DNA of 64,000 nucleotides from Candidatus Latescibacterota bacterium (GTDB lineage: Bacteria; Krumholzibacteriota; Krumholzibacteriia; WVZY01). Of this stretch, positions 1,804-20,479 are shown in pieces. The stretch lies in assembly GCA_020352495.1 (NCBI GenBank), contig CP070677.1, forward strand, positions 3,059,296 through 3,123,295, read 5' to 3'. A model generated the notes under the pieces. That model saw nothing but the letters and a program-made list of their open reading frames with translations, made no database searches and was not told where the DNA came from. Each line of letters begins with the position of its first letter. Position 1 is the first letter of the stretch. Made by a program: the position numbers and the translations under genes.

Positions 1804-2409
1804 ATGCAAAAGCAAGACACCAAGGACGACATAGAGCTCGAAAGTATAGATCTCGCAAAATCGTTTCTTGCCGGTGACCGGCGATCGTTCGACAGATTGA
1901 TAATGCTGCATAAGAGACTGGTGTTCAACCTCTGCTATCGATCACTGGGGGATTACGATGAGGCCGACGACTGCGCACAAGACGTGTTCATCAAAGTCAG
2001 CCGTTCGCTCAAGGATTTCAGGTTCGGATCGAGGTTCACAACCTGGCTCTACCGCATCACCGTGAACACGTGCAAAAACAGGATCGGCTCGCTCGAGTAC
2101 AGGCTCAGATCGCGAACAGTCCGAATAGACACGGAGAGGGATATGGACGACAAACCCAAAGTGCTCGAGATCGAAAATCATAGACATACGCCCGTTGTCG
2201 AGTTCGCAAAAAAAGAGATCGACCATCTGATTCAGTGTGCCGTGAACACGCTGCCGGCCAAACAACGATTGGTTGTCGTACTCCGTGACATCGAGGGACG
2301 GTCATACAAGGAAATCGGCGAGATCATGGGATTTGAGCTGGGAACAGTGAAGTCTACGCTGTCTCGGGCGAGGGAGCAGTTACGAGAACTGCTAAAGGGA
2401 AAGATATGA
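1804..2409 (+). CDS. ECF-type RNA polymerase sigma-70 family factor
   Basis: Region 2 (DCAQDVFIKV...FTTWLYRITVNTCKNR) and region 4 (LPAKQRLVVVLRDIEGRSYKEIGEIMGFELGTVKSTLSRAR) are both present. Starts 19 nt after the serpin stop. Confidence 0.9.
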   Translation: MQKQDTKDDIELESIDLAKSFLAGDRRSFDRLIMLHKRLVFNLCYRSLGDYDEADDCAQDVFIKVSRSLKDFRFGSRFTTWLYRITVNTCKNRIGSLEYRLRSRTVRIDTERDMDDKPKVLEIENHRHTPVVEFAKKEIDHLIQCAVNTLPAKQRLVVVLRDIEGRSYKEIGEIMGFELGTVKSTLSRAREQLRELLKGKI

Positions 2410-2410
2410 G

Positions 2411-3112
2411 ATGGATTGTCGTGACGTAAAAGAGCATCTCTCCGAATATGTTGACGAGATGCTCCCGGAAAAAGAGGCGTCGGAGATCAAGGATCATCTC
2501 GCCCGGTGCGCTGATTGTCTGGGCGAATACGAGTCGACGCTCAAGATAATCAAACACATGAACGAGATGGAGACGATCGATGCACCCGCTGAATTCCTCG
2601 AAAAAGTAACCGCCAGACTCGAAAAGAGGTTTTCTTTTGGGGGTTGGCTTCGACGCCTCTTTGTGCCACTTCGCGTCAAGCTCCCGCTCGAACTTGCCGG
2701 TATCGCTGCCGCCGTTGCGCTGTTGGTCTATGTCTTTGGCGTCAGAGACGGTCGGGATCTATATGAAGTGACGATCTCGATGTCCGGCGAACGGGGGCAG
2801 ACGATCGTCGTCCCCGAAAAGCCCGGGGAAAAACGGGACGAACCCAAACGTCGCGACAAGAAGGGTGGTGAGAGGAGCCCAAGTCTGGAGGAAGTGATAA
2901 GAGCGGCGGGTTGGAGAATCGTGAGCACTGAACGTTGTGAAGACTCTAATATTCCGGCGAGCATGATTGTCGAACTACCGGCGGATGAATATCAAGATCT
3001 TCTCGGGGAGTTGAACCGTCTCGGCGTTGTCGAGACAAGACCTTCACCCGTGTTCGAAGAGGAGCAAGATGTCATCAAGGTGAAAATCGTGGTTCAGAAC
3101 GCGGGCCCCTAG
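2411..3112 (+). CDS. anti-sigma factor (zf-HC2, single TM)
   Basis: Starts 1 nt after the sigma stop. N-terminal H-x3-C-x2-C motif (DHLARCADC). One hydrophobic helix (LPLELAGIAAAVALLVYVF). Confidence 0.75.
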   Translation: MDCRDVKEHLSEYVDEMLPEKEASEIKDHLARCADCLGEYESTLKIIKHMNEMETIDAPAEFLEKVTARLEKRFSFGGWLRRLFVPLRVKLPLELAGIAAAVALLVYVFGVRDGRDLYEVTISMSGERGQTIVVPEKPGEKRDEPKRRDKKGGERSPSLEEVIRAAGWRIVSTERCEDSNIPASMIVELPADEYQDLLGELNRLGVVETRPSPVFEEEQDVIKVKIVVQNAGP

Positions 3113-3239: not shown

Positions 3240-4304
3240 TCAAAGCCACCGTTTCCTTTTGAAATAGGTAAGCATCGCTCCGCAAATCGCTGCAATCACC
3301 AACCAGAAAAATACGTAGCTCCATTTCCAACGCAACTCAGGCATGAAGTCGAAATTCATGCCGTAAATCCCGGCAACGAAGGTGAGCGGCACGAATATCG
3401 TCGCAATGATCGTTAGAACCTTCATCACCTCATTCATCCTGTTGCTCATGCTCGAGAGGTAGAGATCCTGCATTCCCGACACCATGTCCCTGAAGGATTC
3501 CACGACATCGATCACCTGAACGGTGTGGTCGTACACATCCCTCAAAAAGACGCGGGTTCCCTTCTTGATTAGAGACGACTCGCCGCGCTCCAAGGCACTC
3601 ACGGCCTCCCGCAACGGCCAGATGGATTTCCGCAAGAAGATTGTCTCCCTCTTGAGCTCGTGGATCATTTGGAGCGATTCGGGTGTGGCGCGATCGATGA
3701 GGTCACTTTCCAGACTTTCGATTTGCTCTCCGAAATTCTCGAGAATGACAAAATAGTTGTCCACAACAGCATCGATTAGCGCATACAACAGATAGTCCGG
3801 CCCCTGTTTTCGAATTCGCCGCCCTGTGGAACGGATTCGCTCGCGGACGGGTTCGAACACATCGCCGTACCTCTCTTGAAAGGAGAGAACGTAATGGCGT
3901 CCCAGAATAAAACTGACTTGTTCGGATGTTACGTGTTTCTTCTCCGGATCGTAGAATAGCATTCGCATGATGACAAAGAGATAGTCCTGGTAATCCTCAA
4001 CCTTGGGACGCTGGTTGGTGTTCATAACGTCTTCCATCACTAATGGATGAAGCCCGTATTGCTCACCAATTTTGGCAAGGACGTTGGTGTCGTGCAGACC
4101 ATCGATGTTGATCCAGGAAACCGTTCGAGTATCCCGATACGAACTGCATTCCTCGGCCGATGAGAGCTCTTTCTCCTCGAGAGACTCCGGTGAATAATCG
4201 ATGACTCTTATCCGCACCCGTTCAACCTTTTTTTCTCCGACATGTTCGAGCGTCCCCGGCGAGGCACCAATCTTTCTCCTCACTGGTCGCAAGAAACGAG
4301 GCAT
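3240..4304 (-). CDS. corA: CorA magnesium/cobalt transporter
   Basis: 354 aa with the C-terminal YGMNF signature followed by a second TM helix. Architecture is typical of CorA. Confidence 0.9.
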   Translation of the reverse strand: MPRFLRPVRRKIGASPGTLEHVGEKKVERVRIRVIDYSPESLEEKELSSAEECSSYRDTRTVSWINIDGLHDTNVLAKIGEQYGLHPLVMEDVMNTNQRPKVEDYQDYLFVIMRMLFYDPEKKHVTSEQVSFILGRHYVLSFQERYGDVFEPVRERIRSTGRRIRKQGPDYLLYALIDAVVDNYFVILENFGEQIESLESDLIDRATPESLQMIHELKRETIFLRKSIWPLREAVSALERGESSLIKKGTRVFLRDVYDHTVQVIDVVESFRDMVSGMQDLYLSSMSNRMNEVMKVLTIIATIFVPLTFVAGIYGMNFDFMPELRWKWSYVFFWLVIAAICGAMLTYFKRKRWL

Positions 4305-4609: not shown

Positions 4610-5494
4610 ATGAAAGACGCGTTCCAAGCCATTCAAGACGTTCTTCAAAACAGACTCTTCACAATCGCGGGAACGCCGGTCGATCTGGCAACGCTTCTAA
4701 TTTTCCTGTTGATCATCGCCGCAACGTTATGGATTTCGCATGTCCTTCAACGTGGTCTCGTGAGATTCTTTCAGGCACGCGGCGTTCGGGATGAGGCCTC
4801 GATAGGGGTCGGGACCCGTCTCCTTCACTATCTCGTATTGATCATCGGGTTTGGTATAGCGATCCACACCATGGGTATCAATTTGACCGCCCTCTTCGCG
4901 GCTGGGGCCATTTTTGCCGTGGGTCTCGGGTTTGCGATGCAGAATATCGCTCAGAACTTTGTGTCCGGAATCATTCTTTTGGTAGAGCGTACGATAAAGC
5001 CGGCTGACATCCTGGAGGTCGACGGACGAATGGTCCGCGTTGTCCGGCTTGGAGCGCGTGCCACTGTAGTGCGGACCCTTGATGAGGAAGATTTGATCGT
5101 GCCGAATTCCACGCTCGTTCAGTCGACGGTGAAGAACTACACGCTCCGCGACGCGCTATATCGTCTCCGAGCCCCCGTTGGTGTTGTCTATGGTTCGGAC
5201 ATGGCCGTCGTGAGACAGGTACTCGAGGATGCGGCAAAGAAACTGGACTGGCGGTCGAAAGACAAAAACCCGGTCGTGTTGATGACGGAGTTCGGAGATT
5301 CATCCGTCAATTTTGAGGTGTCGGTCTGGGTGGATAACCCTTGGAAAACACGGGCGCTCCGGTCAGAGCTCAACGAGGCGATTTGGTGGGCACTCAAAAA
5401 CGCCGGGATCACGATCGCGTTCCCGCAGCTGGACGTTCATCTTGATCCGCCGGTCGTCGAGTCGTTGGAGTCACTGACGGCCGACGGCCGTTAA
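4610..5494 (+). CDS. small-conductance mechanosensitive channel (MscS family)
   Basis: GGGAGG sits upstream of the ATG. Three N-terminal TM helices are followed by the MscS beta-domain (GFAMQNIAQNFVSGIILLVERTIKPADILEVDG). Confidence 0.85.
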   Translation: MKDAFQAIQDVLQNRLFTIAGTPVDLATLLIFLLIIAATLWISHVLQRGLVRFFQARGVRDEASIGVGTRLLHYLVLIIGFGIAIHTMGINLTALFAAGAIFAVGLGFAMQNIAQNFVSGIILLVERTIKPADILEVDGRMVRVVRLGARATVVRTLDEEDLIVPNSTLVQSTVKNYTLRDALYRLRAPVGVVYGSDMAVVRQVLEDAAKKLDWRSKDKNPVVLMTEFGDSSVNFEVSVWVDNPWKTRALRSELNEAIWWALKNAGITIAFPQLDVHLDPPVVESLESLTADGR

Positions 5495-5523: not shown

Positions 5524-6111
5524 TCACCTGAACTTCGAAAACGATCTCAGCAGATGGAATTTGCGGCGGCCGACGAACAGCTCTCTTGCAGGAAATATTC
5601 CTTCCCTCGCAAAACGAACGTCTTCAATAGAATAAAACGCCTTTGGATTGAACTTGTTGACGAGTTCTATGACGTTGGGTAGGTCATGACGTTTGATCAC
5701 ACTGAAGAACAGATGCACCTTTCCGTCGCCGCCTTGAGCATCGACACTGGTGACACCATAGCCATGTTTCCGAAGTGTTTGTATCAGTTCAGTGGCATCG
5801 GCTTTGGTAATGACGCGTATGATCCTGCTGCCCAATGCCAATTTGTCCTCTAGGCGTAAACCCGCAAAGGTACCGGCAGCATATCCACCAGCGTAACTCG
5901 CGTAGAAGGCTACGTTGTCGAGGTTTCCTATGATTTGCCGAATTGCAAAAAGCCAGATGAGAATCTCAACAAAGCCGACAATCGGCGCGAGGATTTTTTG
6001 TCCGCGGGAGATGAACACGATGCGCATTGTGCCAAGCGACACATCCGCCACACGGGCCAAGAAAATTAAAACACTAAGGATAACAATCTGAAGAGGCTCC
6101 TCTCCCGCCAT
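5524..6111 (-). CDS. UPF0316/DUF2179 membrane protein
   Basis: 195 aa. N-terminal TM helices plus a C-terminal DUF2179-like alpha/beta domain (GYGVTSVDAQGGDGKVHLFFSVIKRHD). Confidence 0.7.
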   Translation of the reverse strand: MAGEEPLQIVILSVLIFLARVADVSLGTMRIVFISRGQKILAPIVGFVEILIWLFAIRQIIGNLDNVAFYASYAGGYAAGTFAGLRLEDKLALGSRIIRVITKADATELIQTLRKHGYGVTSVDAQGGDGKVHLFFSVIKRHDLPNVIELVNKFNPKAFYSIEDVRFAREGIFPARELFVGRRKFHLLRSFSKFR

Positions 6112-6240: not shown

Positions 6241-7302
6241 TCAATCCAGGTTGTACCCGAGACCCGGCCTACCCGTCGGGTAGAGCGCCCCGTTCTTCAG
6301 AACGACGGCGCCGTGCGACGGATCCCCTTGAAGCCCGATGTGCCCGTCGAGATCACAGTAGGCGACGTTCGGACGGGCCAGCGCAAAGTGCAGCCCGGCG
6401 GCAATGGCCAGCGTTGCCTCGTCCATACAGCCGACCATGACCTCGAGTCCGGCGGATCTCGCCACCCCGTTTATGAGCAGCGCTTCGTAAATTCCTCCAA
6501 CTTTCATGAGCTTCACGTTGACCATGTCCACAAGTCCTCGCCGCGCCAGCCTGAAGGCGTCACGAAGACTCATCAGGCTTTCATCAGCCATCACGGGAAG
6601 AGGGACCTTCCGCGTAACCAGACCCAACGAGTCGGGCTTGCCGACCGATGTGGGTTGTTCGATGAGTTCGAGACGGATACTCTTCGTAGCCTCGACGAAT
6701 TGAAGTGTCTCTTCTACCGAGTACCCTTGGTTCGCGTCGAATCGAAGTTGGACGCGTTGCCCCACAGTTTGGCGAACCCGATGGACCCGATCGATATCCT
6801 CCTCCACATCCCGTCCACCTTTGATTTTGAGCGCGGTGAACCCCTCAGCCACCCACCGACGCGCGGACTCGACGGTCTCGGCCGGTGGGAGAATACCGAT
6901 GGTGACACTCGTCTTGAAGCTTCTTCGATATCCTCCGAGAAGCTTCCACAGTGGTAGACCCGCGCTCTTGCCAAGGATATCGTGAATCGCCATATCGATA
7001 GCGGCGATGGCAGCGGGTTGTCCCTTGAGTCGCGTTTTCAGCCGCTCGATCAGGCGGGCAATTCGGAGTGGGTCCGCGCCCAAGAGGAGAGGTGTGGCGT
7101 ATTCGACAGCTCTAAGAACGGATTCAGAGGTTTCTCCCGTGACCTCGAGATCCGGCGCTGCACAGCCGTACCCCGTGATGTCCGTGTTTGTCTCCACCCG
7201 AAGAAATACATTCGTCGTCGACTGGACCGTTTCGTAGGCGATCGTGTACGGTTCGGCAAGCTTCATCGTATGGGGCCAGGCTTCGATTTGTGTGATCTTC
7301 AT
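6241..7302 (-). CDS. dipeptide (L-Ala-D/L-Glu type) or N-acyl amino acid epimerase, enolase superfamily MLE subgroup
   Basis: Has the KxK motif (LKIKGG), metal ligands DANQG / EQP / MADES, the second catalytic Lys (KLMKVGG) and CDLDG. It is the last gene of the 4-gene operon. Confidence 0.85.
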
Positions 7303-7318
7303 GGCGGTTGCCCGACGA

Positions 7319-9736
7319 CTAGTACCGTCTCTGAAAAATCTCGTCCAGTGTCAGTTGTTTGAGGTCTTCGACAAATGCGACGAGATGGCGGATCATTACC
7401 CCCCACATTTTTTCCCCTTTTTCCGCGCTTGCCCGCGTGGGGTCTCCCATCACTCCGCTATCAGAGATCCGCTTCGTGAACGCGTACCATGAGATACCCC
7501 GTTTCGAGGTAAAATCCAGATAACGGCTCGAAAACTGTGGAACTAGTTTCTCGGCCTCTTTCATGTTGACCAATTCAGGTCTCGTGGCCAGGCTCGTACT
7601 CGTCTCGATTTCGCCCGCGTGGACGTCGTTGGGTGTCTCAATCATCGAATAGATGTCAACATCACTCGTCTCGCCGCTGTCCACGCACACAAATATGCGG
7701 GCGTCCCGGTTGATCATCTGGGCAGCGAAATTCAATGCCGGGTCGTTGCCGCCGTGGCCGTTGATGATGACGAGCTTGGTAACACCGTTTTTCGCCGCGC
7801 TCATGCCAATCTCGTAGACCAGTCGCGAGAGCGTCTCATTGCCAACGCTGATCGTACCACTGAACTCTTCGTGATGATAGGACACACCGTACGGCACGAG
7901 CGGCAATACGACCGGTTTTGGATCACTGCACTTCCGAGCCACTGCCATTGCGAGGTAGTACGCATCAAACGCGTCGGTATCCAACGGCAAATGTGGTCCG
8001 TGTTGTTCGATCGATCCCACGGGTAAAAGCGCGACGTCAACCTCCTTGAAACGTTTTTTCGCCACCGGCCATGTCATTTCGCCGAGGAGACATCCGTCAT
8101 CGGGGGTGTCGCGATCCATCGATCGGCCAGTTCCAGGTTTGCTTCTCTCGAACACATACGGTTGGTGCAGGGCAGCATCGGTCGGCAGATCGATTTCTGT
8201 CCACATTTTTCCCTTTCGCCGAACCGCACCGTCGGCGTGCTGAAGAAGGATACGGTAGAGGGGAAGCCGCAACTCTTGTGGAATGCCTTCCATCGGTGAT
8301 CGTTCCTGGTCGAACCGCAGCTTCATGATCTCGGGATGTTCTCTCGATGGTGCGGTGACTCGATCCGTGTCATCGAGTAGCCCGTTCTGCCGAAGCATCC
8401 AAACGAGGTGCTCCGCGCCGGCCTGTTCTTGGTGGGTGGGCTTGACAGCAAGCGCGGCCAGACACTCGTCCACCTGTGAGTGGTCGTACCCGCACACTAC
8501 GGGCGCTCCATCGTTTGCCAAAACCATTCCCACTATTCGACGGCATTTCTCGCATTTCCCGCACGGCCGGACCCGTGAGCCTGCCGTGTGAGCGGCGTGG
8601 CAAGACATTTGGTGTTTGAATAGCTCGGGATACCTTTTGACCAACACTTTCTCGATCAGCAGCTCGGATAACGGCCGCAAGATCGAAAACTGACTCATCG
8701 CCCAACGCTTCCTGGAGTAGTAACGGCTCAGTGCATTGTCGAAGTATCGGCTTTGATCATAAAGACCGTTGTAGTGCGTTATACCTTTATGTGTAAGACG
8801 CGCGGTTGTGTCGTATTCATCGCCAACGACAAGCCGGCCTACACCGCGCTTTCGAAGGATTGGGAGCGCACCAAAAAGAAATACCGCGACGGTCCAAAGC
8901 CGGATCGGGTACTCGTCGGACCGGACGGTGGCAAAGTCCTGCCTGACAAACGGGAGGTGACGGAGCATCCATGCGAACACCCGGTCGGAGTTCACCCACA
9001 CTCGCGAAGTGTTCGGCACGTCGGCCTTGAAGTAGCGAAACGCATTCAACGCCGTAAACCAGTGTCTTCCCGACTCGTTTACAAAAACGGGGTGGGTTTC
9101 GTATCCCATCTCACGGAGAAGCCCGAAACTGAGAAGGCTGTCCTTTCCACCGCTCGATAGGATTGCGATTCGATCCGGTTTGCTCTCGGTCGGACTCCAG
9201 GGCAAACTCGTTTTGAGTCCTGTGGAATCCGCAAAGGTCAAGGATGCATTCAAATACGACTTTTTCTTTGTTACCGACAAATTCCTCAACGCCGGAACGA
9301 GAAACGGGTTGGGTTCGAGGAACTTCTTGACGTAGATTTCCCTCGCCGTGTTTTCCGCCATTTCGGCGAGAAACTTTCTGTCTGCCGTGTCGTAGCCGCC
9401 TCTAAAAACGATTTCGTCGCATAAAAGACCGTAGTTCAACGCCACTTGGGCGGCTATCATGTTGGCCAAGTCGCGGTCATTTTCCGAGGAAGGCTCGAAG
9501 ACGTCCTCCTCGTACCGATAGACCAGCTCGGTCACGTCCCTGCGACCGTTTTGCGTTACCGAATAGGGAGCGGTAAGCCTACGTCGTTCCAGCTTGACGG
9601 GGCCAACCTCCAGACGTTCGATGACACGAAGTCTGTCGAGCGCGGGAGCCCCGTCTCGCCCGGCCGAGTTTTTGAAGGGCGACCCGTTATGTTTGGATTG
9701 TTTCACTTCCCCTCCCACGAGTGATGACCCGACCAA
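7319..9736 (-). CDS. fusion protein: PP-loop ATP pyrophosphatase-like domain + creatininase-family amidohydrolase domain
   Basis: 805 aa. SGGKDS PP-loop ([12 protein letters not shown]) and a QueC-like Cys knuckle (CHAAH...CGKCEKCRR) in the N-terminal two thirds. The C-terminal 250 aa carry creatininase motifs ([33 protein letters not shown]). Confidence 0.7.
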
Positions 9737-9751
9737 CTGCCATCGGAATCA

Positions 9752-10825
9752 TCACTTTGAATAATGGATCAGAGTGTCAACGAGCCTCCGCGCACCGTGG
9801 ACGAGCGTGTCCACAGTTGGCAGCCCGGTTGTCCTTTCCATGATCCCGCAGACGGTGTCGATTTCCTCGCGCGGGATACCCTCGTGGTTGACTGCGATCG
9901 CTACCACCGGCTTGCCCGATATGATTTCTAACGCTTGGATCTGTCTTGTCAGAGGATGAATGGGATAGCCCGGAAAACCGTCGTATTCCCGTCGAGCGGG
10001 GGCGTGTTGTAACACGATCACATCGGGGCGTGTAGCGGCCAGAATTTCGAATCCGCCGGGATAGGCGGGGTTGAGCAGGCTTCCTTGACCTTCGACGACA
10101 ATGACATCCGGTTTTCGTTCGTCCCAGGCCTTCACGATAACGTGCTCGATTTCGCCGGTGACAAAATCGTTGATCAACGAGTCGAGCATGACCGTGTACC
10201 GCGCACCTTGAAGCCAAGCTGTCTGTCCCGTGCCGATCATTTCGACCGTGTATCCCGCCTGTTCGAATCCTTCGACGATTCCCCACGCCGTCGTCCGTTT
10301 GCCGACGGCGGAGTCAGTCCCCAACACCGCAATCCGGAACGAAGAGACCTTTTCGATGCCGCCGGTGAAAAAGTGCATCTCCGCCCTGCTCGGCGTCTTG
10401 CGTACATCCCGGATCACGACGCCGTTTTCGGAAGCGATCGCGTTGAGCTCCGGATCCTCGGAGAGAAAATCGTGGAGACCGGAATCCACGTTCCATCCGA
10501 GCCTCAGTGCCTGCCCTACATCCTCTCTCGCCTTTTGGGAAAGGCGACCACTATCGGGCGCGAGTCCGACGACAAAGTGTGTGGCCCCTTGGCCGTGTGC
10601 GTCCGCCATACCCGCCGCCTCCTCCATCGAACCCAGGATCGGGATCCCACGGTTTGTTCCGTCCAGAACACTGCCAGCGTCTTGCCCGCGGTACCGGCTG
10701 TCCAGAATGGCAAGAATGTCGTACCGTCTCGTGAATCGCACGAGACCGTGCGCCGTCTTTCCGTTTGGGGTATTGAACGCCCCCTCACAATACACGATCG
10801 CCTTTTGTTTGCTTTCGCGGCTCAT
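9752..10825 (-). CDS. DUF1611 family protein (DgcN-like)
   Basis: 357 aa with the characteristic IAVLGTDSAVGKRTTA segment. Its ATG overlaps the upstream gene's stop in an ATGA junction at 10822-10825. Confidence 0.8.
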   Translation of the reverse strand: MSRESKQKAIVYCEGAFNTPNGKTAHGLVRFTRRYDILAILDSRYRGQDAGSVLDGTNRGIPILGSMEEAAGMADAHGQGATHFVVGLAPDSGRLSQKAREDVGQALRLGWNVDSGLHDFLSEDPELNAIASENGVVIRDVRKTPSRAEMHFFTGGIEKVSSFRIAVLGTDSAVGKRTTAWGIVEGFEQAGYTVEMIGTGQTAWLQGARYTVMLDSLINDFVTGEIEHVIVKAWDERKPDVIVVEGQGSLLNPAYPGGFEILAATRPDVIVLQHAPARREYDGFPGYPIHPLTRQIQALEIISGKPVVAIAVNHEGIPREEIDTVCGIMERTTGLPTVDTLVHGARRLVDTLIHYSK

Positions 10826-11940
10826 TTTTTTCCCGTTAACACGGCAACGAAACGGTCATTTGGCAAAGGCTCTCTCACGTGTCGCTCCAAGAGTGCGATG
10901 AGGCCGGCTGTAGACGCGGGAAGGATATTGAGACCCTCTCGTTCGCGGATGAGTCTTGAATACGTCATCATTTTTTTGTCCGACGCGTTCTCGGCCCATC
11001 CATCGGTCGCTCTTATAGACCGAAGGGCATACTCTCCGTCAATCGAATGCCAGTTGATCAACGGTTCATTTACGCTTGTTTCCCGTATGCCCTCAGGCTG
11101 GAGATCTTCACAATGCGGACTCTTCTTGAGCCACGAGTGCACGATCGGGTTTTTTCGCGACGACGACCCTGCGACCATACGTGGCATCCGTGAGGTCTTC
11201 CCCCTCCTGTATAGGCTTAGGAACCCTTTGTGAATCCCCGCCAACGTTGTCCCGTTCGACACGGGTACGGCGACCACCGACGGAGCGTCGCGCATCTCGT
11301 CATAGATCTCGTATGCAATCTGCCCGTACGCCCTGAGTTGTGTCAGTGTGTTCGCCCCGCCCGGGTTTGCATCATAGATTTCGTCGTCCCTCGCCCGTTT
11401 TTGCGAGGCAAGGACGGTGCGCTCATAATCCCCTCCCTCACGGATGATGACAGCTCCAAAGCTTTCCATTTCCTCGATCCGTTGACTCTTGTAACCCAAG
11501 GGGACGTAGATGTAGCACTTCAATCCAACCACCGACGCGGCCAACGCCGTGGCCACCCCGTAGTTGCCGCAGGTAGCGACGGTGACGGCATCGTATCCTC
11601 TCCGGAGTGCATCACCGGCTTGTACAAAGGCGATGCGGTCTTTCTGGGTACCGGTGGGGTTCCCACCCTCGAACTTGAGGTACAGCTGACGGATTTTTGC
11701 CTCGCGTTCTATGTTTCTCGCTCGGGAGAGCGTTGTATCACCAACCTCGGATTCGAGAATATCATCGAAGGCTTCAAGTCGCTCTTCGAGGGGAAGGGAC
11801 GGGTCTTTGACCGTCTCGGCAGTCGGTGTCAGATCTTCGGAGAATAGCTGTTCCTGTGAAGAAGCTCCATCCAAGACAATGTCGAGGCGTGCACCCCCGG
11901 CATCGGTGGTTGTTTCTCTATCCAATTTGTCGTCCCGCAT
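10822..11940 (-). CDS. fold-type II PLP-dependent enzyme (threonine synthase / cysteine synthase-like)
   Basis: PLP-lysine motif FEGGNPTGTQKDRIA and the Gly-rich GNYG loop. An acidic 70-aa N-terminal extension is unusual. No SD sequence. A TATAAT hexamer lies 9 nt upstream of the ATG. Confidence 0.8.
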   Translation of the reverse strand: MRDDKLDRETTTDAGGARLDIVLDGASSQEQLFSEDLTPTAETVKDPSLPLEERLEAFDDILESEVGDTTLSRARNIEREAKIRQLYLKFEGGNPTGTQKDRIAFVQAGDALRRGYDAVTVATCGNYGVATALAASVVGLKCYIYVPLGYKSQRIEEMESFGAVIIREGGDYERTVLASQKRARDDEIYDANPGGANTLTQLRAYGQIAYEIYDEMRDAPSVVAVPVSNGTTLAGIHKGFLSLYRRGKTSRMPRMVAGSSSRKNPIVHSWLKKSPHCEDLQPEGIRETSVNEPLINWHSIDGEYALRSIRATDGWAENASDKKMMTYSRLIREREGLNILPASTAGLIALLERHVREPLPNDRFVAVLTGKK

Positions 11941-12775: not shown

Positions 12776-14401
12776 CTAGTACATGTCACCCATACCGGCT
12801 CCGCGACCAACAGTCGGCGTTTTTTCCTTATCGGGTTTGTCCGTGACTACCGCTTCCGTCGTCAGGAGAAGACCGGCGACACTACCGGCATTCTGAAGGG
12901 CAGACCGCGCCACCTTTGTCGGGTCGACAATGCCCGCCTTGAGCATGTCTTCATACTCACCGGTCGCGGCATTGAAACCGACGTCGATGGGCCCCTTGAG
13001 GAGATGCTCCACAACGAGCGACCCCTCGGCACCGGCGTTCGTCGCGATCTGGCGAACCGGCTCCTCGAGCGCGCGGCGAACCATGTCGCGGCCGACCGCT
13101 TCATCACCGGAGAGTTGGAGCTTGGCAAGAGCCTTGCCCGCACCGAGCAAAGTGATGCCGCCACCCGGGACGATACCCTCGTCGACCGCGGCGCGAGTTG
13201 CCGACAACGCGTCTTCGACACGCGCCTTCTTCTCTTTCAACTCGACTTCGGTGGCGGCACCCACATTGATCACGGCCACGCCGCCGGCCATCTTCGCCAA
13301 ACGCTCCTGGAGCTTCTCCTTGTCATACTCCGAGGTCGTGTCCTCGATCTGTCGGCGAATTTGAGCAACCCTTGCCTTGATATCAGCTGTCTTACCGCCG
13401 CCCTCGACGATCGTCGTGTCTTCTTTGTTGATCGTCACGCGCTTGGCCTTACCCAGATCGGCCACGGTCACGTTTTCCAGTTTGAAACCGGCCTCCTCAC
13501 TGATCACACGGCCACCGGTCAGGATCGCGATGTCTTCGAGCATCGCCTTCCGCCGGTCACCAAAACCCGGAGCCTTGACCGCAGAGACCTGAAGCGTCCC
13601 GCGAAGCTTGTTGACCACCAAGGTCGCCAACGCCTCGCCCTCCACATCCTCTGCTATGAGGAGAAACGGCTTTGAAAGCTGCGCCACCTTCTCGAGGATG
13701 GGAAGCAGATCCTTCATCGAGCTGACCTTCTTGTCATGGATCAGAACGAACACGTCTTCGAGTACGACTTCCATCCGCTCGGCATCGGTGACAAAGTACG
13801 GTGAGAGATACCCGCGGTCGAACTGCATCCCTTCGACCACTTCCAACGTCGTCTCCATGCTCTTGGCCTCTTCGACCGTGATGACGCCGTCTTTTCCCAC
13901 CTTCTCCATCGCATCGGCAATCAGATTTCCGATCTCGGGATCGTTGTTCGCGCTGATCGTCGCAACGTTGCTGATCTCTTCACGGTTCTTGATCTGTTTC
14001 GACCGCTTGCGGATCTCCTCGACCACGACTTCGACGGCCTTGTTGATCCCGCGTTTGATCGCCATGGGGTTGGCCCCCGCGGTGACGTTCTTGATCCCCA
14101 GATGGATCAGCTTTTGCGCGAGAATCGTCGCCGTCGTCGTCCCATCGCCGGCCACGTCCTGAGTCTTGGTGGCCACTTCTTTGACCATTTGGGCGCCCAG
14201 GTTTTCGTACGGATCGTCCAGCTCGATCTCCTTGGCAATGGTCACGCCGTCGTTGGTCACCGTGGGGCTACCAAACTTTTTGTCGATAACAACGTTTCGC
14301 CCTTTGGGACCGAGAGTGATCTTGACCGCATTGGTGAGCTGGTCCACACCGGACTTGAGCTTCTCTCTTGCCTCGACGTCATAAACCAATTGTTTTGCCA
14401 T
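12776..14401 (-). CDS. groL: chaperonin GroEL
   Basis: 541 aa. Near-canonical GroEL sequence ([12 protein letters not shown], ends GMGDMY). Confidence 0.98.
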
Positions 14402-14879: not shown

Positions 14880-14946
14880 TTTGATATCTGATATTACCTA
14901 ACAAAAAATCTTGACGTGGAAATATATATCTGTTAGGCTCAATGAT

Positions 14947-15456
14947 ATGAAGCATGTGCAAGATCGCTTTGACATCGTCCGTCAGCAATGGAAGCAGGAG
15001 CGACCCGATTTGGACGCCTCCGGTATCGAAGTCGTCGGTCGTATCTTGTTTCTTTCTAGGAAGTTAAGGCGAAGTGCCGCCCGTAAGCTGGCTCGGCTCG
15101 GGCTGAATCTCTGGGGGTACGACGTGCTGGCGAGCCTGAGGCGGCAGGGTCCTCCCTTTCGGATGTCCCCGACCGAACTCAGTCGCACGACACTGCTCTC
15201 GCCCGCAGCCATGACCAATCGCCTTGACCGTCTCGAGGCTGCAGGATGGGTCCAGCGCCAGCCCGACCCCGTCGACCGCCGGAGTCTGCTCATCGAGCTC
15301 ACACCCGAGGGACGCGATCTCGTCGATGAGGCCGCCGGCGTTCGACTCAAGGAGGCTATCGACTCGTTGAACCCCTTGTCCGAGTCCGAACGGCGGGATC
15401 TCGGCGACTTGCTGCGAAGACTCCTCAACGAGTCCGACGAGACGGAACATCTGTAG
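14947..15456 (+). CDS. MarR family transcriptional regulator
   Basis: The TTG start in the track was trimmed to the ATG at 14947 (MKHVQDRF...). Winged-helix region LTRTTLLSPAAMTNRLDRLEAAGWVQRQPDPVDRRS. Confidence 0.85.
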   Translation: MKHVQDRFDIVRQQWKQERPDLDASGIEVVGRILFLSRKLRRSAARKLARLGLNLWGYDVLASLRRQGPPFRMSPTELSRTTLLSPAAMTNRLDRLEAAGWVQRQPDPVDRRSLLIELTPEGRDLVDEAAGVRLKEAIDSLNPLSESERRDLGDLLRRLLNESDETEHL

Positions 15457-15619
15457 CGGGAGTCGGGCTATGGTAGACCAATGCGGCGCACACGAGTGCA
15501 TGGTTTACAGGCGCCTGCTCGCACGGGCAGAACGAGACGCCAGGATTTTGTATTCGACCCGGCGGGGCACGCGTGGCCGTACTGGTATCAATACTCTTCC
15601 TGGCTGAGTTGATGAACCG

Positions 15620-16570
15620 ATGCACCACCAAGAGTTGTTCCGGCGTTGCCCGGATAACCCGATACTCACCGTTGACGACTGGCCCTACCCGGCCAATTCC
15701 GTTTTCAATGCCGCAGCGGCCACGATGGCGAATCGGACGGTGCTACTCGTGCGCGTCGAAGATTTCAGGGGGATCTCCCACCTAACCACCGCCAAAAGCA
15801 AGAACGGCATAGACGGCTGGCAAATCGATCACAAACCCACTTTCGCACCCGATCCGGATTCATGCCCCGAAGAGGTCTGGGGGATCGAAGACCCACGGGT
15901 CACATGGCTTAATGATCAGGAGGAGTGGGGAGTCGCTTACACCGCATATTCCGAAGGTGGCCCTATGGTGTCTCTCGCCACGACGAGAGATTTTTGCAGC
16001 TTCGTTCGGATTGGGCCCGTTCTACCTCCCGAAGACAAAGACGCCGCACTGTTTCCCGTAAGGTTCAATGATCAGTGGGCCATGGTACACCGACCCATCT
16101 CCACACACGTGCGTCTGGGAGCACATATTTGGGTGTCGTTTTCTCCCGATCTCAAGCATTGGGGAGATCATCAGCACGTCATACTCGCTCGCCACGGCAG
16201 CTGGTGGGACGCAAACAAGATCGGTCTTTCCGCGCCACCGATGGAGACTTCCGAGGGGTGGCTGATCCTCTACCACGGGGTAAGGACAACCGTTTCGGGA
16301 TCGATATACCGGTTGGGACTCGCGCTGCTCGATCTCGATAACCCAACAAGACTCACCCATCGAACCGATGAATGGATCTTTGGGCCCAAGGCTCCATACG
16401 AACGCGAGGGGGATGTGGATGAAGTCGTCTTTCCCTGTGGTTGGCTGCGAGACGGCGATGACGTGAGAATGTACTATGGCGCCGCGGACTTGTCGATAGC
16501 ACTGGCGACGGCCAGCCTTCAAGATTTGCTGGATTTTGTGCTCAGATTCCCGTATCCCCAGCGTAAGTGA
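15620..16570 (+). CDS. glycoside hydrolase family 130 (beta-mannoside phosphorylase/glycosidase-like)
   Basis: 316 aa five-bladed-propeller type sequence (NPILTVDDWPYPANSVFNAAA, EDPRVTWL, GWLILYHGV, YYGAADLSIALA). Confidence 0.8.
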   Translation: MHHQELFRRCPDNPILTVDDWPYPANSVFNAAAATMANRTVLLVRVEDFRGISHLTTAKSKNGIDGWQIDHKPTFAPDPDSCPEEVWGIEDPRVTWLNDQEEWGVAYTAYSEGGPMVSLATTRDFCSFVRIGPVLPPEDKDAALFPVRFNDQWAMVHRPISTHVRLGAHIWVSFSPDLKHWGDHQHVILARHGSWWDANKIGLSAPPMETSEGWLILYHGVRTTVSGSIYRLGLALLDLDNPTRLTHRTDEWIFGPKAPYEREGDVDEVVFPCGWLRDGDDVRMYYGAADLSIALATASLQDLLDFVLRFPYPQRK

Positions 16571-16710: not shown

Positions 16711-18861
16711 ATGAAGATCGCAGTGGTCTATAACCGTGCCAGCAAGAATGTCATCAATTTGTTCGGAATGCCAAACCAGGAACGTATCGGTCTGAAGACC
16801 GTCAAACGTATCGTCGATGCGCTCAAGGCGGGTGGTCATCAGGCCGTCGCCTTGGAGGGCGACAAAGAGCTGGTGGAAAAACTCGAAGAGTTCATGCCAC
16901 GGGTGCTCAAAGGAGAAATCCCGGGTATGGTGTTCAATCTCTCCTACGGGATCCAGGGGCAGGCCCGCTACACCCACGTGCCGAGCATTTTGGAGATGGT
17001 CGGGATTCCATATGTGGGGTCGGGGCCATTGGCGCACTCGCTTGCTTTGGACAAGTTCATCTCGAAAATGATATTTCGCCAACATGGTGTGCCCACCGCT
17101 GATTTCTCGGTATTGAGAGACCGGGATTTCGAACCACCGGAACTCGACTATCCGTTGATCGTGAAACCACAAAGCGAAGCCGTTTCGTTTGGAATAAAAG
17201 TAGTAAAAACCGCCAAGGAGCTTCGAGAAGCCGCTGATGTGATTTTTGCCGAGTACTCACAACCGGTTTTGGTGGAAAAATATATCGACGGTCGTGAGAT
17301 CAACGTCGGCTTGCTTGGAAACCACCCCGCCGAAGCGCTTCCACCAGCCGAAATATCGTTTGGCCGCACCGGCCCAAAGATTTACCGGTACGAGGACAAA
17401 ACCGGAAGATCAGGACGAACGATCGGAGTTGACTGCCCCGCCAAGCTGACCCGGTCGCAGGTGACCAAGGCGCAGGACATCGCAAAAGCCGCGTTCAGCG
17501 CGCTGGGGTGCTATGACTGCGCGCGCGTCGACATGCGTCTGGATGAACAAGGTAAATTCTATGTTCTAGAGGTAAACAGCCTCCCCAGCCTTGGTGAGCA
17601 CGGATCGTACACACATGCTGCGGAGGTCGCGGGACTCGACTACACGGCTCTCGTCAACCGGCTGGTTGCCGTGGCCAGCGCTCGGTATTTCGGGACGCCG
17701 CACCCACCGCAAATCCCCGCAAAGACGGACGATCCAGGGAAGTTCACGTTCTCCTACATCACACAACGACGGGACGCGATCGAAAAACGTCTAAAGGAGT
17801 GGATTTCGTTATCCAGTCGTACATCGGACCCTGTCGGTCTCCGGGAAGCCCGCACCAAGTTCGAAACCGTGCTTACGCAAATGGGGCTTGGCCGTGTTGA
17901 TGATCTGAGCAACGAGCACTCCGCGTGGACTTGGGTGACCAAAAAGGGTTTGGATAATGGGACTCTGCTCGTTTGTCACCTGGACGTGCCGCTCTCAGCG
18001 GAATCCCCACCGGAGGTGTTTCGAAGGGATCCGGAATGGTTATTCGGTGAAGGAGTGGCAAGTTCGCGCGCCCCGGTGGTCATGTTGGAGTTCGCGTTGC
18101 AGGCGCTACGCACCCAACGACAATTGCGCAGACGCCGTATCGGAGTGTTATTCTACACCGACGAAGGCAGAGATGCCCTCTACAGCGAAAACGTAGTTCG
18201 ACGCGCCGCGGCGAAGGCCAAACAGGTACTCGTCCTTCGGCCTGGCCGCACGGGGCATCAGATTCTGACTCAACGCCGTGGTCAAAGAAAATACGAACTC
18301 ACGGTGGACGGGCCGTCCAGACGAGTCGGACAAGTCCGTACGCAGCCCGAAGCGCTTCTGTGGTTTAGCGAGAAGCTCGCCGCGATCACGAAGCTGTCAT
18401 CGAGGAAGGAGCGGCTTGCCGTCGCCGCCGTGGACGTGAGAAGTGAGAACTTCCCGACGCTGACACCCCACCGCGTCAGAGCGACCCTGCTCATGAGCTA
18501 TCTTGACGGTCGCAAGGCTGACGACTTGGAGAAACAGATCCGTGCGATCCTTGGCAAACGTCCTGTTCGATGGAGACTCGAGGTCGTCTCGGATCGACCG
18601 CCGATGAAAGACCGCGTAATAAACAAACGACTGGCCAAGGCCCTTTTGTCAACAGCCTCCGAATGGGAAATTGAACTTGATAAGGGCTCTTCCCTTTGGC
18701 CGTCTGTAGCCGGGCTGGTAGCGGGAAAGACGGCTGTCGTGTGTGGCGTGGGCCCCGTTGCCCGAGACCTCTATACGCCCCGCGAGGCCATTCAACGGAT
18801 CAGCTTGGTTCAGCGGGCGATCGTCCTCGCCCAGTTTCTTTTGAAGATCGAAACGAGGTGA
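16711..18861 (+). CDS. fusion protein: D-Ala-D-Ala ligase-like ATP-grasp + M20-like peptidase domain
   Basis: The N-terminal 330 aa are Ddl-like (PYVGSGPLAHSLALDKFISK, PLIVKPQSEAVSFGI, YVLEVNSLPSL). The C-terminal half resembles M20/ArgE (LLVCHLDVPL, GEGVASSRAP, FYTDEG), with some metal ligands apparently substituted. Confidence 0.7.
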   Translation: MKIAVVYNRASKNVINLFGMPNQERIGLKTVKRIVDALKAGGHQAVALEGDKELVEKLEEFMPRVLKGEIPGMVFNLSYGIQGQARYTHVPSILEMVGIPYVGSGPLAHSLALDKFISKMIFRQHGVPTADFSVLRDRDFEPPELDYPLIVKPQSEAVSFGIKVVKTAKELREAADVIFAEYSQPVLVEKYIDGREINVGLLGNHPAEALPPAEISFGRTGPKIYRYEDKTGRSGRTIGVDCPAKLTRSQVTKAQDIAKAAFSALGCYDCARVDMRLDEQGKFYVLEVNSLPSLGEHGSYTHAAEVAGLDYTALVNRLVAVASARYFGTPHPPQIPAKTDDPGKFTFSYITQRRDAIEKRLKEWISLSSRTSDPVGLREARTKFETVLTQMGLGRVDDLSNEHSAWTWVTKKGLDNGTLLVCHLDVPLSAESPPEVFRRDPEWLFGEGVASSRAPVVMLEFALQALRTQRQLRRRRIGVLFYTDEGRDALYSENVVRRAAAKAKQVLVLRPGRTGHQILTQRRGQRKYELTVDGPSRRVGQVRTQPEALLWFSEKLAAITKLSSRKERLAVAAVDVRSENFPTLTPHRVRATLLMSYLDGRKADDLEKQIRAILGKRPVRWRLEVVSDRPPMKDRVINKRLAKALLSTASEWEIELDKGSSLWPSVAGLVAGKTAVVCGVGPVARDLYTPREAIQRISLVQRAIVLAQFLLKIETR

Positions 18862-18865
18862 CGGA

Positions 18866-20479
18866 TTGACGAGGCCACCCAAGAAAACAAAAACCATCAA
18901 CGTTTCGTCCACCGCGCTTCCGTGGCGTAGTCTCCAGCGAGCCTCGGTATCACGACACGGGATGATCGCGACCGCGCACCACCGGGCTACCGAGATTGGT
19001 ATCGAGATTCTGGAGAGGGGTGGAAATGCCATCGATGCTGCCGTGGCTTCGGCCTTCGCCCTCGGAGTGTGCGAGCCCGCCGCGAGCGGACTCGGTGGTC
19101 AAACGATGATGCTCATCTTCCACGCCCCCACCCGCAAGAAGATTGCGTTGGACGGGTCATCGCGGGCGCCGTACCGCGCGGTGCCAAACTCGCTTGCCCG
19201 CGAGGATGTCCGGCGGGGATACACAGCGACGACTGTCCCGAGCACCCCCGCCGTCCTCGACTATGCGCTTCGTACTTACGGCACCCTCAGTCTCAAGCGA
19301 GTCCTCGCTCCCGCGATCGAGCTTGCCGAAGACGGATACGAAGTCACCCCGTTGCACCGAACGCTCACCATGCGAGAGCGCAAATACCTGAAGTTGACCA
19401 ACGCCGCGAAGTTTTTTTTGACCGATATGAAAAAGAGCCCGCCCGTCGGGTACCGACTGCGTCAACCCATTCTCGCCGAGACGTTCCGGAGGCTCGGGCG
19501 CAAAGGCGTCAAGGATTTCTACACTGGGGCTATGGCGACTTCGATTCACCGCGATATGGTCCGTAATGGCGGACTCATCCGAAAGGATGATCTCGCCCAA
19601 ATCCCTTGGCCGATCGAGCGTCGTCCGCTTGCGGGCCGACTGGGACCGGCGCGACTCTTTACGATGCCGCCCCCCGGGGCCGGACGAACGTTGATCGAGA
19701 TGCTCAATATACTGAGCCACTTTCAACCACATCAATACGATCCCGACACGGCGAAAGGAGCGGTCTGTTTCGCCGAGGTCAATCGTCGGGCGTTCCTCGA
19801 CCGCCGGGACCGCCCATTTGATCCAAACTTCTATCCACAGGTCGAAGAACGCAAAATGCTCGATATCGACTACGCAAAGCGGGTGGCGCGGCAGACGCGA
19901 AACCGGATCCGGTCACACGGAGAGACAACTCACCTGTCGGTAATGGACCGAGATGGAAATGCCGTCGCGCTCACACAGTCTATCGAGAATGTATTTGGCG
20001 CGTGTGTGGTCAACGAAGAGCTCGGTTTCCTTTACAACAATTATATGTACGCATTCGAGTATAGTGACTACAGTCATCCGTATTTCATGCGGCCGGGTGC
20101 GGTACCCTGGGCGAGCGTCGCCCCCACTATCGTTTTTCACGGGCGGCAACCGTGGCTCGTTATCGGTTCGCCCGGGAGTGAGCGTATCACGCCCTCGATC
20201 ACCCAAGTCCTCATCCGTCTGTTGAAAGGATACTCCCTTTACGAGGCCATCGAGGCACCGAGGCTCCATTGTTCGCTCGACGGCAGGGTTTCTCTGGAAG
20301 CAGATCGGTTTGGCCCCCGCACGATTCCGGCACTCCAACGGCTCGGCTTCGACATCGATGAGCGTGAGTCGTACTCGTTCTATTTGGGCTGCGTTCAGGC
20401 CGTCCAAAGAAACGGAAAGCTCTTTCACGGGGCCGCCGATCCCAGACGGGACGGCGCCGCGGGAGGGCCTCGGAAGTGA
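18866..20479 (+). CDS. ggt: gamma-glutamyltranspeptidase family protein, no signal peptide
   Basis: GNAIDAAVASAFALGVCEPAASGLGG, plus the autoprocessing/catalytic Thr context HGETTHLSVMDRDGNAV. TTG start at 18866, 4 nt after the upstream stop. An alternative start is the ATG at 18962. Confidence 0.85.
   Translation: MTRPPKKTKTINVSSTALPWRSLQRASVSRHGMIATAHHRATEIGIEILERGGNAIDAAVASAFALGVCEPAASGLGGQTMMLIFHAPTRKKIALDGSSRAPYRAVPNSLAREDVRRGYTATTVPSTPAVLDYALRTYGTLSLKRVLAPAIELAEDGYEVTPLHRTLTMRERKYLKLTNAAKFFLTDMKKSPPVGYRLRQPILAETFRRLGRKGVKDFYTGAMATSIHRDMVRNGGLIRKDDLAQIPWPIERRPLAGRLGPARLFTMPPPGAGRTLIEMLNILSHFQPHQYDPDTAKGAVCFAEVNRRAFLDRRDRPFDPNFYPQVEERKMLDIDYAKRVARQTRNRIRSHGETTHLSVMDRDGNAVALTQSIENVFGACVVNEELGFLYNNYMYAFEYSDYSHPYFMRPGAVPWASVAPTIVFHGRQPWLVIGSPGSERITPSITQVLIRLLKGYSLYEAIEAPRLHCSLDGRVSLEADRFGPRTIPALQRLGFDIDERESYSFYLGCVQAVQRNGKLFHGAADPRRDGAAGGPRK

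Follow-up and report, generated by a model that had tools for sequence, protein, structure and literature searches.

DgcN and DgcA form a pathway of D-glutamate catabolism (Yu et al. 2023, ISME J 17:537, as cited in PMC12363236; used in PMC10845958) in which, by the accounts given in these two papers, DgcN acetylates and DgcA racemises. MurL is an ATP-dependent, AMP-forming enzyme that turns the C-terminal residue of a peptide from L into D (PMC5808125, PMC8788868); according to these reviews it was proposed to adenylate the C-terminal alpha-carboxylate, the inversion from L to D being one-way (Feng et al. 2017), and it was previously reported without known domains. In QueC and Cap9, adenylation of a carboxylate is followed by amine attack (PMC13279940), and a 2026 survey of the QueC family mentions no link to creatininase, MurL or DUF1611. 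Here we describe a four-gene operon with relatives of these proteins, found in a 64,000-nucleotide stretch of the genome of a Candidatus Latescibacterota bacterium (contig CP070677.1, positions 3,059,296 to 3,123,295 of the forward strand; hereafter the window, with positions counted from its first letter). The operon encodes a pyridoxal 5'-phosphate (PLP) enzyme, a DUF1611 protein, a fusion of a PP-loop domain (the N-domain) to a creatininase-family hydrolase, and an enolase-superfamily epimerase, which together make five predicted enzyme activities.

We tentatively propose that the operon encodes a route via an N-acylated amino acid or dipeptide, which would be acylated, activated, epimerised and hydrolysed. 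Each part comes from a superfamily already known, and the logic is similar to that of established routes in which stereoinversion depends on acylation. The initial annotation of the window, made from the letters alone, had pointed to DgcN/DgcA as a real D-glutamate pathway, which its citation in PMC12363236 bears out, and had placed the PLP enzyme and the fusion of an ATP-dependent enzyme to an amidohydrolase outside that scheme, as they indeed are. It had also supposed the combination to be undescribed. The searchable papers yielded no description of DUF1611, PP-loop::creatininase, PLP enzyme and epimerase together; nothing was found in the literature searched for creatininase with a PP-loop, for creatininase with threonine synthase and epimerase, or for COG3367, and DUF1611 appeared there only in unrelated papers.

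A co-conserved four-gene operon

The genes, domains and motifs of the operon, with amino acids abbreviated aa and open reading frame ORF, are as follows.

10822-11940, minus strand: gene of a ThrC-like PLP enzyme (fold-type II, PALP), 372 aa; ORF and PALP match
10822-10825, minus strand: ATGA stop/start overlap from the PLP gene to the DUF1611 gene; sequence read directly
9752-10825, minus strand: gene of the DUF1611 protein, 357 aa; ORF and DUF1611_N and DUF1611 matches
7319-9736, minus strand: ORF of the PP-loop::creatininase fusion, 805 aa from a TTG start
8102-9706, minus strand: N-domain of the fusion, about 535 aa; QueC-fold PP-loop domain, MurL-related, putatively carboxylate-adenylating
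9137-9154, minus strand: PP-loop motif SGGKDS in the N-domain; from the translation
8543-8602, minus strand: four-Cys motif C-x12-C-x2-C-x2-C in the N-domain; from the translation, QueC-like putative zinc site
7319-8101, minus strand: creatininase-family metal amidohydrolase domain at the C-terminus of the fusion; PF02633
6241-7302, minus strand: gene of a dipeptide-epimerase-type enolase-superfamily protein (MLE subgroup), 353 aa; MR_MLE_N and MR_MLE_C

The four minus-strand ORFs and the ATGA overlap, both reported in the initial annotation, were read directly in the sequence, and its domain calls (DUF1611, creatininase, PALP and MR_MLE) were all matched by Pfam. Of the two intergenic gaps it had given, that of 16 bp between the stop codon of the fusion gene and the ATG of the epimerase gene was found as described, and that of 15 bp between the DUF1611 and fusion genes depends on the TTG at 9736. 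The fusion probably starts instead at a GTG at 9706, and this gap is more likely 45 bp, because the GTG is preceded by a GGGAGG Shine-Dalgarno sequence and yields a 795-aa product that matches the database protein P0001. An Rfam scan of the whole window gave no match, hence no riboswitch, and promoter and terminator scans found sites in numbers no higher than in shuffled sequence.

To compare loci, five genome loci (from a single-protein query), contigs encoding homologues and 80 metagenome loci were aligned with the window by tblastn, which gave 83 dereplicated contexts. Counting only the contexts with enough flank to judge, the PLP gene was present in 62 of 63, the DUF1611 gene in 73 of 76, the creatininase domain in 75 of 82 and the epimerase gene in 67 of 71. 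The order PLP enzyme, DUF1611 protein, N-domain::creatininase, epimerase was almost constant, and the flanks were unrelated between loci. The overlap of the PLP stop with the DUF1611 start was kept in 33 of 33 scorable contexts, and the gap between the fusion and epimerase genes was mostly 1-22 nt. The four genes are one co-conserved, translationally coupled operon, and chance juxtaposition is excluded because the synteny recurs in 83 contexts. The single unit claimed in the initial annotation, which had made co-conservation its decisive question, is thereby firmly upheld.

Source names included Gemmatimonadota, Latescibacteria, Eisenbacteria, Chitinivibrionia, Deltaproteobacteria, Phycisphaerales, Zixibacteria, Acidobacteria, Aminicenantes, Ignavibacteriaceae and 'Cytophagia' metagenome-assembled genomes. 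An exhaustive search of 1.84 billion representative proteins returned 483 relatives of the N-domain at E up to 1e-3, the N-domain search gave more than 3000 protein clusters at 90% identity, and more than 579 metagenome contigs matched. The operon proteins appear to evolve about as slowly as the chaperonin GroEL, because their identity to the window was 57-81%, against 64-70% for GroEL on the same loci.

Variants of the operon were also found. In P0151 (contig of JGI 3300042731), DUF1611 is fused to the N-domain, and creatininase has a gene of its own behind the fusion, ahead of the epimerase gene. The N-domain is joined to creatininase in P0174 (L012, 245-2725) and P0187, which have only 30-35% identity and whose PP-loops are degenerate. 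P0150 (L095, 506-2983) carries an S-adenosylmethionine-dependent methyltransferase in place of the creatininase domain. Only the PLP, DUF1611 and N-domain genes were present in L005 (Zixibacteria) and L011 (Phycisphaerales); DUF1611 was missing in L086 and L091, where the PLP and N-domain genes stay adjacent, and creatininase was missing in five contexts. An N-domain at 36% identity was still found near PALP and DUF1611 genes. On an archaeal contig (L096, 5313-7841; with Rpb4, L21e, Pus10 and a family-B polymerase), 4 bp separate a DUF1611 gene from an N-domain gene, and genes for the PLP enzyme, creatininase and epimerase are absent.

Because of this archaeal pair and the reduced variants, the oldest linked pair appears to be DUF1611 and the N-domain; the PLP enzyme would have joined in bacteria, and creatininase and the epimerase later, to become nearly fixed. 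The initial annotation had paired DUF1611 with the epimerase; the conserved core is instead DUF1611 and the N-domain (with the PLP enzyme).

Further observations were made on these loci. The distant N-domain members P0174, P0187, P0158 and P0241 have degenerate PP-loops (for example VSGSAES and VDGTRES) and may have lost the use of ATP. A GNAT acetyltransferase gene adjoins the N-domain gene in the distant bacterial relatives L013, L014 and L097. A protein of about 310 aa is encoded between the creatininase domain and the epimerase in L037 (10433-11365), L036 and L040 and replaces the epimerase in L076; it had no match in Pfam, NCBIfam or PDB.

Predicted activities of the four proteins

A Pfam search of the fusion N-domain returned no family, and PF06508 (QueC) was unmatched at E up to 0.01. 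The S-G-G-K-x-S motif was invariant among 18 N-domain relatives down to 26% identity (alignment A3). In the four-Cys motif, C369, C382 and C385 were invariant and C388 nearly so across 25 relatives, and the spacing, which we take to be that of QueC, would indicate a zinc rather than an Fe-S site. An AlphaFold2 model of the fusion was built with 30 homologues and had a mean pLDDT (predicted local distance difference test) of 76.5, with most of the N-domain above 85. Foldseek matched the N-domain model to QatC (9y01_B, E 1e-4 over 467 columns) and also to Cap9, MnmA, MJ0690, QueC and YcfA, with TtuA among the matches; the template modelling (TM) scores, normalised to the target, were 0.62 for QueC 2pg3 and 0.69 for 3bl5.

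The MurL model NF041275 matched the fusion at E 4e-7 (27.8-28.8 bits, against a cut-off of 700 bits) and 10 of 25 N-domain family members each hit it on their own, the best being P0284 (E 7e-10, 37.9 bits), which is itself a 108-bit relative of the fusion N-domain. A search with this bridging protein returned 6 relatives, no MurL among them. These data suggest that MurL and the fusion N-domain may belong to one QueC-like PP-loop clade, and the N-domain is best described as a QueC-fold, MurL-related putative carboxylate-adenylating domain. The label 'ATP-pyrophosphatase' in the initial annotation can be made more specific in this way. A MurD2-type Mur ligase was absent among the recurrent neighbours and among the 25 commonest Pfam families of 98 immediate neighbours.

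The fold matches to QatC and Cap9 prompted a defence system (QatABCD or type IV CBASS) as a candidate. It was rejected, with no PADLOC hit, no relative on a viral contig, and neighbours of metabolic or membrane type.

The C-terminal domain of the fusion matched PF02633 with 231.8 bits (gathering score 31.3) over residues 553-789, and the translation contains HAGEIETS and further metal-binding motifs of the creatininase family. Among NCBIfam models, MftE, a peptidyl-dipeptidase, scored best (160 bits, cut-off 172), with creatininase at 101.8 bits (cut-off 235). Foldseek matched the C-domain to creatininases at E 1e-9 with a TM score of about 0.66.

The DUF1611 protein matched DUF1611_N (88 bits) and DUF1611 (202 bits) in Pfam, with a Rossmann-like N domain and a P-loop C domain, and its translation carries a Walker-A-like motif, GTDSAVGKRTT. 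The solved DUF1611 structures 2g0t, 7xrj and 2obn matched it at E 1e-39 to 1e-32. DgcN (NF041892) was the sole NCBIfam family matched, at 159.3 bits against a cut-off of 480, and the protein is by these scores a paralogue of the D-Glu N-acetyltransferase DgcN, not a DgcN orthologue.

The epimerase matched MR_MLE_N (69 bits) and MR_MLE_C (175 bits) and aligned over its whole length with three dipeptide epimerases in PDB, 3jva (E 4e-75), 3rit (E 5e-73) and YkfB (1jpm, E 8e-65). Its top model was the Thermotoga-type Ala-Glu epimerase (230 bits, under the 500-bit cut-off), and the DgcA model NF042940 gave 166.3 bits (cut-off 400). The KxK and second-Lys acid/base pair and the D/E/D metal ligands aligned with those of 3jva, 3rit and 1jpm and were invariant in 60 orthologues. 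In dipeptide epimerases a DxD motif binds the N-terminal ammonium of the dipeptide; here it reads CDLDG (6343-6357, minus strand), and all 60 sequences have D319. Where YkfB has Arg24, which we take to hold the gamma-carboxylate of the substrate Glu, the epimerase has Glu24 (codon 7231-7233), with 56 E and 4 Q among the 60 sequences. The epimerase also shares an MDE motif with 3rit, which was presumably crystallised with L-Arg-D-Lys and binds cationic dipeptides. Its sequence identifies the enzyme as of dipeptide type, MLE subgroup, and not a DgcA orthologue. The resemblance to DgcN/DgcA noted in the initial annotation thus stands as kinship with that pair and fails as orthology.

Lysine-catabolism genes were found at some of the loci. 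A lysine-ketoglutarate reductase (LKR)-type gene lies between the DUF1611 and fusion genes in L037 (6656-7996) and L040 (6624-7949), with E 9e-84 to the LKR domain of human AASS, and an operon of LKR, saccharopine dehydrogenase and class-III aminotransferase genes converges on the cluster in L015 (11417-15288) and L018 (8105-11565). D-Glu is unlikely as the epimerase substrate because the DxD is of dipeptide type and Glu stands where Ala-Glu epimerases have Arg24; the acidic pocket and the lysine-catabolism neighbours favour a cationic, lysine-type side chain.

These findings bear on two alternatives. A DgcN/DgcA-type catabolism of D-glutamate, or of an acidic D-amino acid, with added steps would fit DgcN as the sole NCBIfam match of the DUF1611 protein, DgcA among the epimerase hits, and the fact that MurL and Ala-Glu epimerase (AEE), which are the nearest characterised relatives besides these, likewise have Glu stereocentres as their targets (PMC5808125). 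We consider it very unlikely, given that both proteins score far under the equivalog cut-offs, that the DxD is of the type for a free N-terminal ammonium, with a conserved Glu at the Arg24 position, and that the accompanying catabolic genes serve lysine, not glutamate.

The second alternative is recycling of peptidoglycan peptides, in which an imported stem-peptide fragment, with Lys or diaminopimelate and a D-centre, would be epimerised and hydrolysed and its lysine passed to the saccharopine pathway; the YkfA-D/AEE route for L-Ala-D-Glu is an analogue. Dipeptide epimerases, YkfB among them, are the structures nearest to the epimerase, four contexts have genes of lysine catabolism inside or next to the operon, and genes for an L,D-transpeptidase (YkuD with a peptidoglycan-binding domain), an M15-like peptidase and a major facilitator superfamily (MFS) permease are directly upstream in L037 and L040, with YkuD also in L025 and L059. 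This alternative would also fit the 'small-peptide salvage' idea of the initial annotation. It leaves the PLP enzyme, DUF1611 and the ATP-consuming step unexplained, however, and cell-wall genes were found in only about 4 of the 83 contexts. No amidase, LD-carboxypeptidase or oligopeptide ABC transporter recurred among the immediate neighbours, and the archaeal DUF1611 and N-domain pair hints at a core in lineages without peptidoglycan. We judge peptidoglycan recycling distinctly unlikely.

The PLP enzyme matched Pfam PALP with 181 bits and the NCBIfam model PRK06381 'threonine synthase' with 423.6 bits, over its cut-off of 266, but reached only 83.3 bits with TIGR00260 (thrC), under the cut-off of 167, and likewise failed four other ThrC models. 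Its top PDB matches were threonine synthases (E 1e-24). In the alignments the Schiff-base Lys lies in NPTGTQKDR, and equivalents of the phosphate-binding Arg and Asn of ThrC are retained. The S-T-G-N-T loop that follows the PLP lysine is the substrate-binding loop in ThrC structures; aligned with 2zsj, 2d1f and 1uim, it reads T-C-G-N-Y(-G) in the PLP enzyme. At the N-terminus, residues 1 to about 20 are variable, and residues from about 20 to 64 carry an LLDGA...RLEAYEDI motif that is kept across 56 orthologues. The 'acidic 70-aa extension' of the initial annotation is therefore a variable tail only over residues 1 to about 20, and from about 20 to 64 it is by alignment a mostly conserved, family-specific element and not a mere tail. 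The automatic name 'threonine synthase' is doubtful because of the failed thrC cut-off, the altered loop, the N-terminal element and the operon context.

A further alternative assigns the PLP enzyme to sulfur insertion: the PP-loop domain would adenylate a carbonyl or carboxylate, and the PLP enzyme would supply or release cysteine sulfur, giving a thio-acid, a thioamide or a sulfur amino acid. YcfA/YcfC (6-thioguanine synthesis), CysM/CysO and MetM/MetO are precedents, and ThrC-like enzymes that use thiocarboxylate carriers are known. The PLP enzyme and the N-domain are the most constant pairing (62 of 63 contexts) and stay adjacent in L086 and L091, where DUF1611 is missing, and YcfA, MnmA and TtuA are among the N-domain fold matches. 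Sulfur insertion is nevertheless highly improbable: the neighbours include no recurrent sulfur-carrier protein, cysteine desulfurase or rhodanese, the four-Cys motif presumably forms a zinc site, and the epimerase and DUF1611 are left unexplained. No small sulfur-carrier gene recurred either, and an upstream ORF of about 100 aa, seen in 8 contexts, has no family and was uncalled as a gene in L009.

The proposed route and the neighbourhood

Co-occurrence, the fusions (P0151, P0174 and P0187) and the conserved overlap link the activities to one another. Gene structure, co-conservation, fusions, family and fold assignments and intact active-site motifs were established directly, and we infer each catalytic step from family chemistry, along with the substrate and the direction. 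In the route that we tentatively prefer, the DUF1611 protein would acylate or aminoacylate an amino acid at its alpha-amine, with DgcN as the precedent. The MurL/QueC-like domain would then use ATP to adenylate a carboxylate of the acylated intermediate, with either a one-way C-alpha inversion (MurL precedent) or an amide bond (QueC and Cap9 precedent; PMC13279940) as the outcome. The enolase-type enzyme would epimerise the dipeptide-like form at its C-terminal residue, the metal hydrolase of creatininase type in the fusion would take off the acyl or aminoacyl handle (MftE precedent), and the ThrC-like PLP enzyme would make or consume the free amino acid through beta- or gamma-carbon chemistry. 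Most likely, the net effect would be to spend ATP on editing the stereochemistry of, or salvaging, an amino acid or dipeptide that is not acidic and is probably cationic (lysine-type).

Several points weigh against this route. The PLP enzyme is the most constant partner (62 of 63 contexts), yet its role is unexplained by a logic of acylation, epimerisation and deacylation. An ATP-driven MurL-like domain and a reversible enolase-type epimerase would be redundant if both invert the same centre. The meaning given to Glu24 depends on the analogy with YkfB Arg24 and on the cationic binding presumed for 3rit, and the lysine-catabolism genes occur in only 4 of the 83 contexts. Variants that lack creatininase, the epimerase or DUF1611 indicate that the full five-step scheme is not obligatory. 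Finally, MurL is the only related NCBIfam family for the N-domain, and it is reached through the model only, at 28-38 bits against a cut-off of 700 bits.

In an unlikely but more specific version, the DUF1611, MurL-like and creatininase domains would constitute an ATP-driven one-way amino-acid stereoinverter, the free-amino-acid counterpart of MurD2/MurL and a housekeeping source or sink of a lysine-type D-amino acid. The amino acid would be acylated, adenylated, inverted (possibly through an oxazolone-like intermediate) and deacylated. Its carriers would include Gemmatimonadota, Latescibacteria, Eisenbacteria, Zixibacteria and Acidobacteria, and the core pair is also present in an archaeon.

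The operon is abundant in environmental bacteria and is found with little change across many uncultured phyla, and automatic annotation gives its products only as 'threonine synthase', 'DUF1611', 'creatininase family protein' and 'dipeptide epimerase'. Solving it would give a domain of unknown function its function and would show a role of the MurL/QueC-like clade beyond peptidoglycan synthesis and phage defence. It may also uncover a new ATP-paid control of amino-acid chirality, of relevance to the cycling of D-amino acids in soils and sediments and to deracemisation by biocatalysts.

The genes next to the operon in the window include the following.

5524-6111, minus strand: DUF5698/DUF2179 small membrane protein gene; Pfam and NCBIfam PRK04164
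11977-12435, minus strand: hsp20 gene; HSP20 match of 93 bits
11977-14872, minus strand: heat-shock stretch, with groES-groEL (12776-14401) upstream of hsp20

No further enzyme was universal among the neighbours of the 83 contexts. The DUF5698/DUF2179 gene starts 129 bp downstream of the epimerase gene in the window, and its product is a recurrent accessory neighbour and a possible transporter. DUF2179 membrane proteins of DUF5698 type occurred in 8 contexts and those of YitT type in 8-9 more, usually directly after the epimerase. Other recurrent neighbours were MFS proteins (13 contexts), sigma-54 activators (12) and NIF3-like proteins (6), together with Ser/Thr kinases. A sigma-54 promoter upstream of the PLP gene was considered as a candidate, and it was not supported: -24/-12-like elements preceded this gene at 6 of 54 loci and were seen in 2 of 54 coding controls.

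Heat-shock genes were non-universal and variously arranged neighbours, with Hsp20 in 6-7 contexts and GroEL/GroES in 6. Only 36 bp separate the end of the window's hsp20 gene from the PLP gene; the junction shows no obvious Shine-Dalgarno sequence, and hsp20 may be co-transcribed with the operon. Heat-shock genes near the operon were also seen in L021, L043, L056, L058, L066, L084, L086 and L090, and Lon in L011. A gene for an MscS channel (4610-5494, plus strand) and one for a CorA transporter (3240-4304, minus strand) flank the operon, each present in 4-6 other contexts, with MscS tallied in 6-7; TrkA-linked channels, permeases and exchangers were seen at other loci. The channel and transporter neighbours could reflect a link to osmotic stress or merely shared ancestry.

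These neighbours bring in one more alternative, which we regard as possible although rather unlikely: the operon would make a small metabolite (an N-acyl amino acid, a dipeptide or an amide), for example a compatible solute or stress protectant. The PLP enzyme would make an unusual amino acid, DUF1611 would N-acylate it, and the QueC-like domain would form an amide, as do QueC, Cap9 and AsnO-type enzymes; the hydrolase and epimerase would mature or recycle the product, and MFS, YitT or MscS proteins would move it. In the structurally closest enzymes, QueC, Cap9 and QatC, an adenylated carboxylate is joined to an amine (PMC13279940). Membrane, transport and stress genes are frequent neighbours (DUF2179/YitT in about 17 contexts, MFS in 13, MscS and Hsp20 in 6-7 each and GroEL in 6), the GroEL-like conservation of the operon proteins suggests a constrained, housekeeping-like role, and a fusion of the N-domain to a methyltransferase exists. 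A hydrolase fused to the activating enzyme and a reversible dipeptide epimerase would, however, be unusual in a purely biosynthetic route, and no neighbour is universal; the adjacency of stress genes is a minority pattern that may reflect shared genome ancestry, and no product can be named.

Farther from the operon, a pair of genes lies at 16711-20479 (plus strand) of the window, the first of them encoding a 716-aa protein with a D-Ala-D-Ala-ligase-like ATP-grasp domain (residues 13-326; 195 bits, Ddl cut-off 243), whose C-terminal part (346-541) is weakly similar to the M20 peptidase carboxypeptidase G2. Its gene, the second of this neighbourhood to join a ligase to a hydrolase, is followed after 4 bp by a gamma-glutamyltranspeptidase gene, and the pair lies near the operon in 4-5 other contexts (L001, L043, L085 and L092). 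Also on the plus strand are genes for an extracytoplasmic function (ECF)-type sigma factor and then a zf-HC2 anti-sigma protein (1804-3112), genes for a MarR regulator and then a GH130 phosphorylase (14911-16570), and a 380-aa ORF without a family match (642-1784).

Comparison with known systems

The PLP enzyme resembles ThrC in its best solved-structure matches, in the aligned PLP lysine and phosphate-binding residues and in passing the PRK06381 cut-off. It differs in failing TIGR00260, in its altered loop and extra conserved N-terminal element, and in its place in this operon rather than with hom/thrB. The creatininase-type domain shares with the MftE/creatininase family a full-length PF02633 match with metal-binding motifs, and MftE, the mycofactocin peptidase, shows that the family includes peptide-bond hydrolases. 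Unlike these enzymes, the domain falls under both cut-offs and is fused to an ATP-dependent domain, and mycofactocin genes are absent here. The epimerase is about 40% identical over its full length to the dipeptide epimerases 3jva, 3rit and YkfB, with the catalytic, metal-binding and DxD residues aligned; it differs from YkfB-type enzymes in having Glu24 instead of Arg and a more acidic pocket with the MDE motif, as in 3rit, and its genomic partners are unlike those of the ykfABCD murein-peptide operon.

With QueC, Cap9 and QatC (PMC13279940, PMC13329287), the N-domain shares the SGGxDS PP-loop, the C-x(n)-C-x2-C-x2-C site and the overall fold, and by analogy it may share their chemistry of carboxylate adenylation followed by amine attack. 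In contrast to them, it has about 170 extra N-terminal and about 130 extra C-terminal residues, and its locus has no PF06508 or PADLOC match, no QatA, QatB or QatD, no CBASS partners and no relatives on viral contigs. Among characterised sequence families, MurL, of the MurD2-MurL system, is the N-domain's sole relative. Here, however, there is no Mur-ligase partner, the N-domain forms one protein with a hydrolase and has DUF1611 and PLP enzymes as its partners, and on present evidence a UDP-MurNAc-peptide cannot be its substrate.

The DgcN-DgcA system likewise pairs a DUF1611-family protein with an enolase-superfamily racemase/epimerase, and the likeness would extend to the logic: an amino acid is N-acylated, its C-alpha is inverted and the acyl group is removed. 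Both proteins of the present operon nevertheless score far under the DgcN and DgcA cut-offs, and the epimerase is of dipeptide type (DxD) with Glu24 and no carboxylate-binding Arg. The DUF1611 and epimerase genes are split by the fusion gene instead of being adjacent, and a ThrC-like PLP enzyme, a MurL/QueC-like ATP-dependent domain and a creatininase-type hydrolase are added to the pair.

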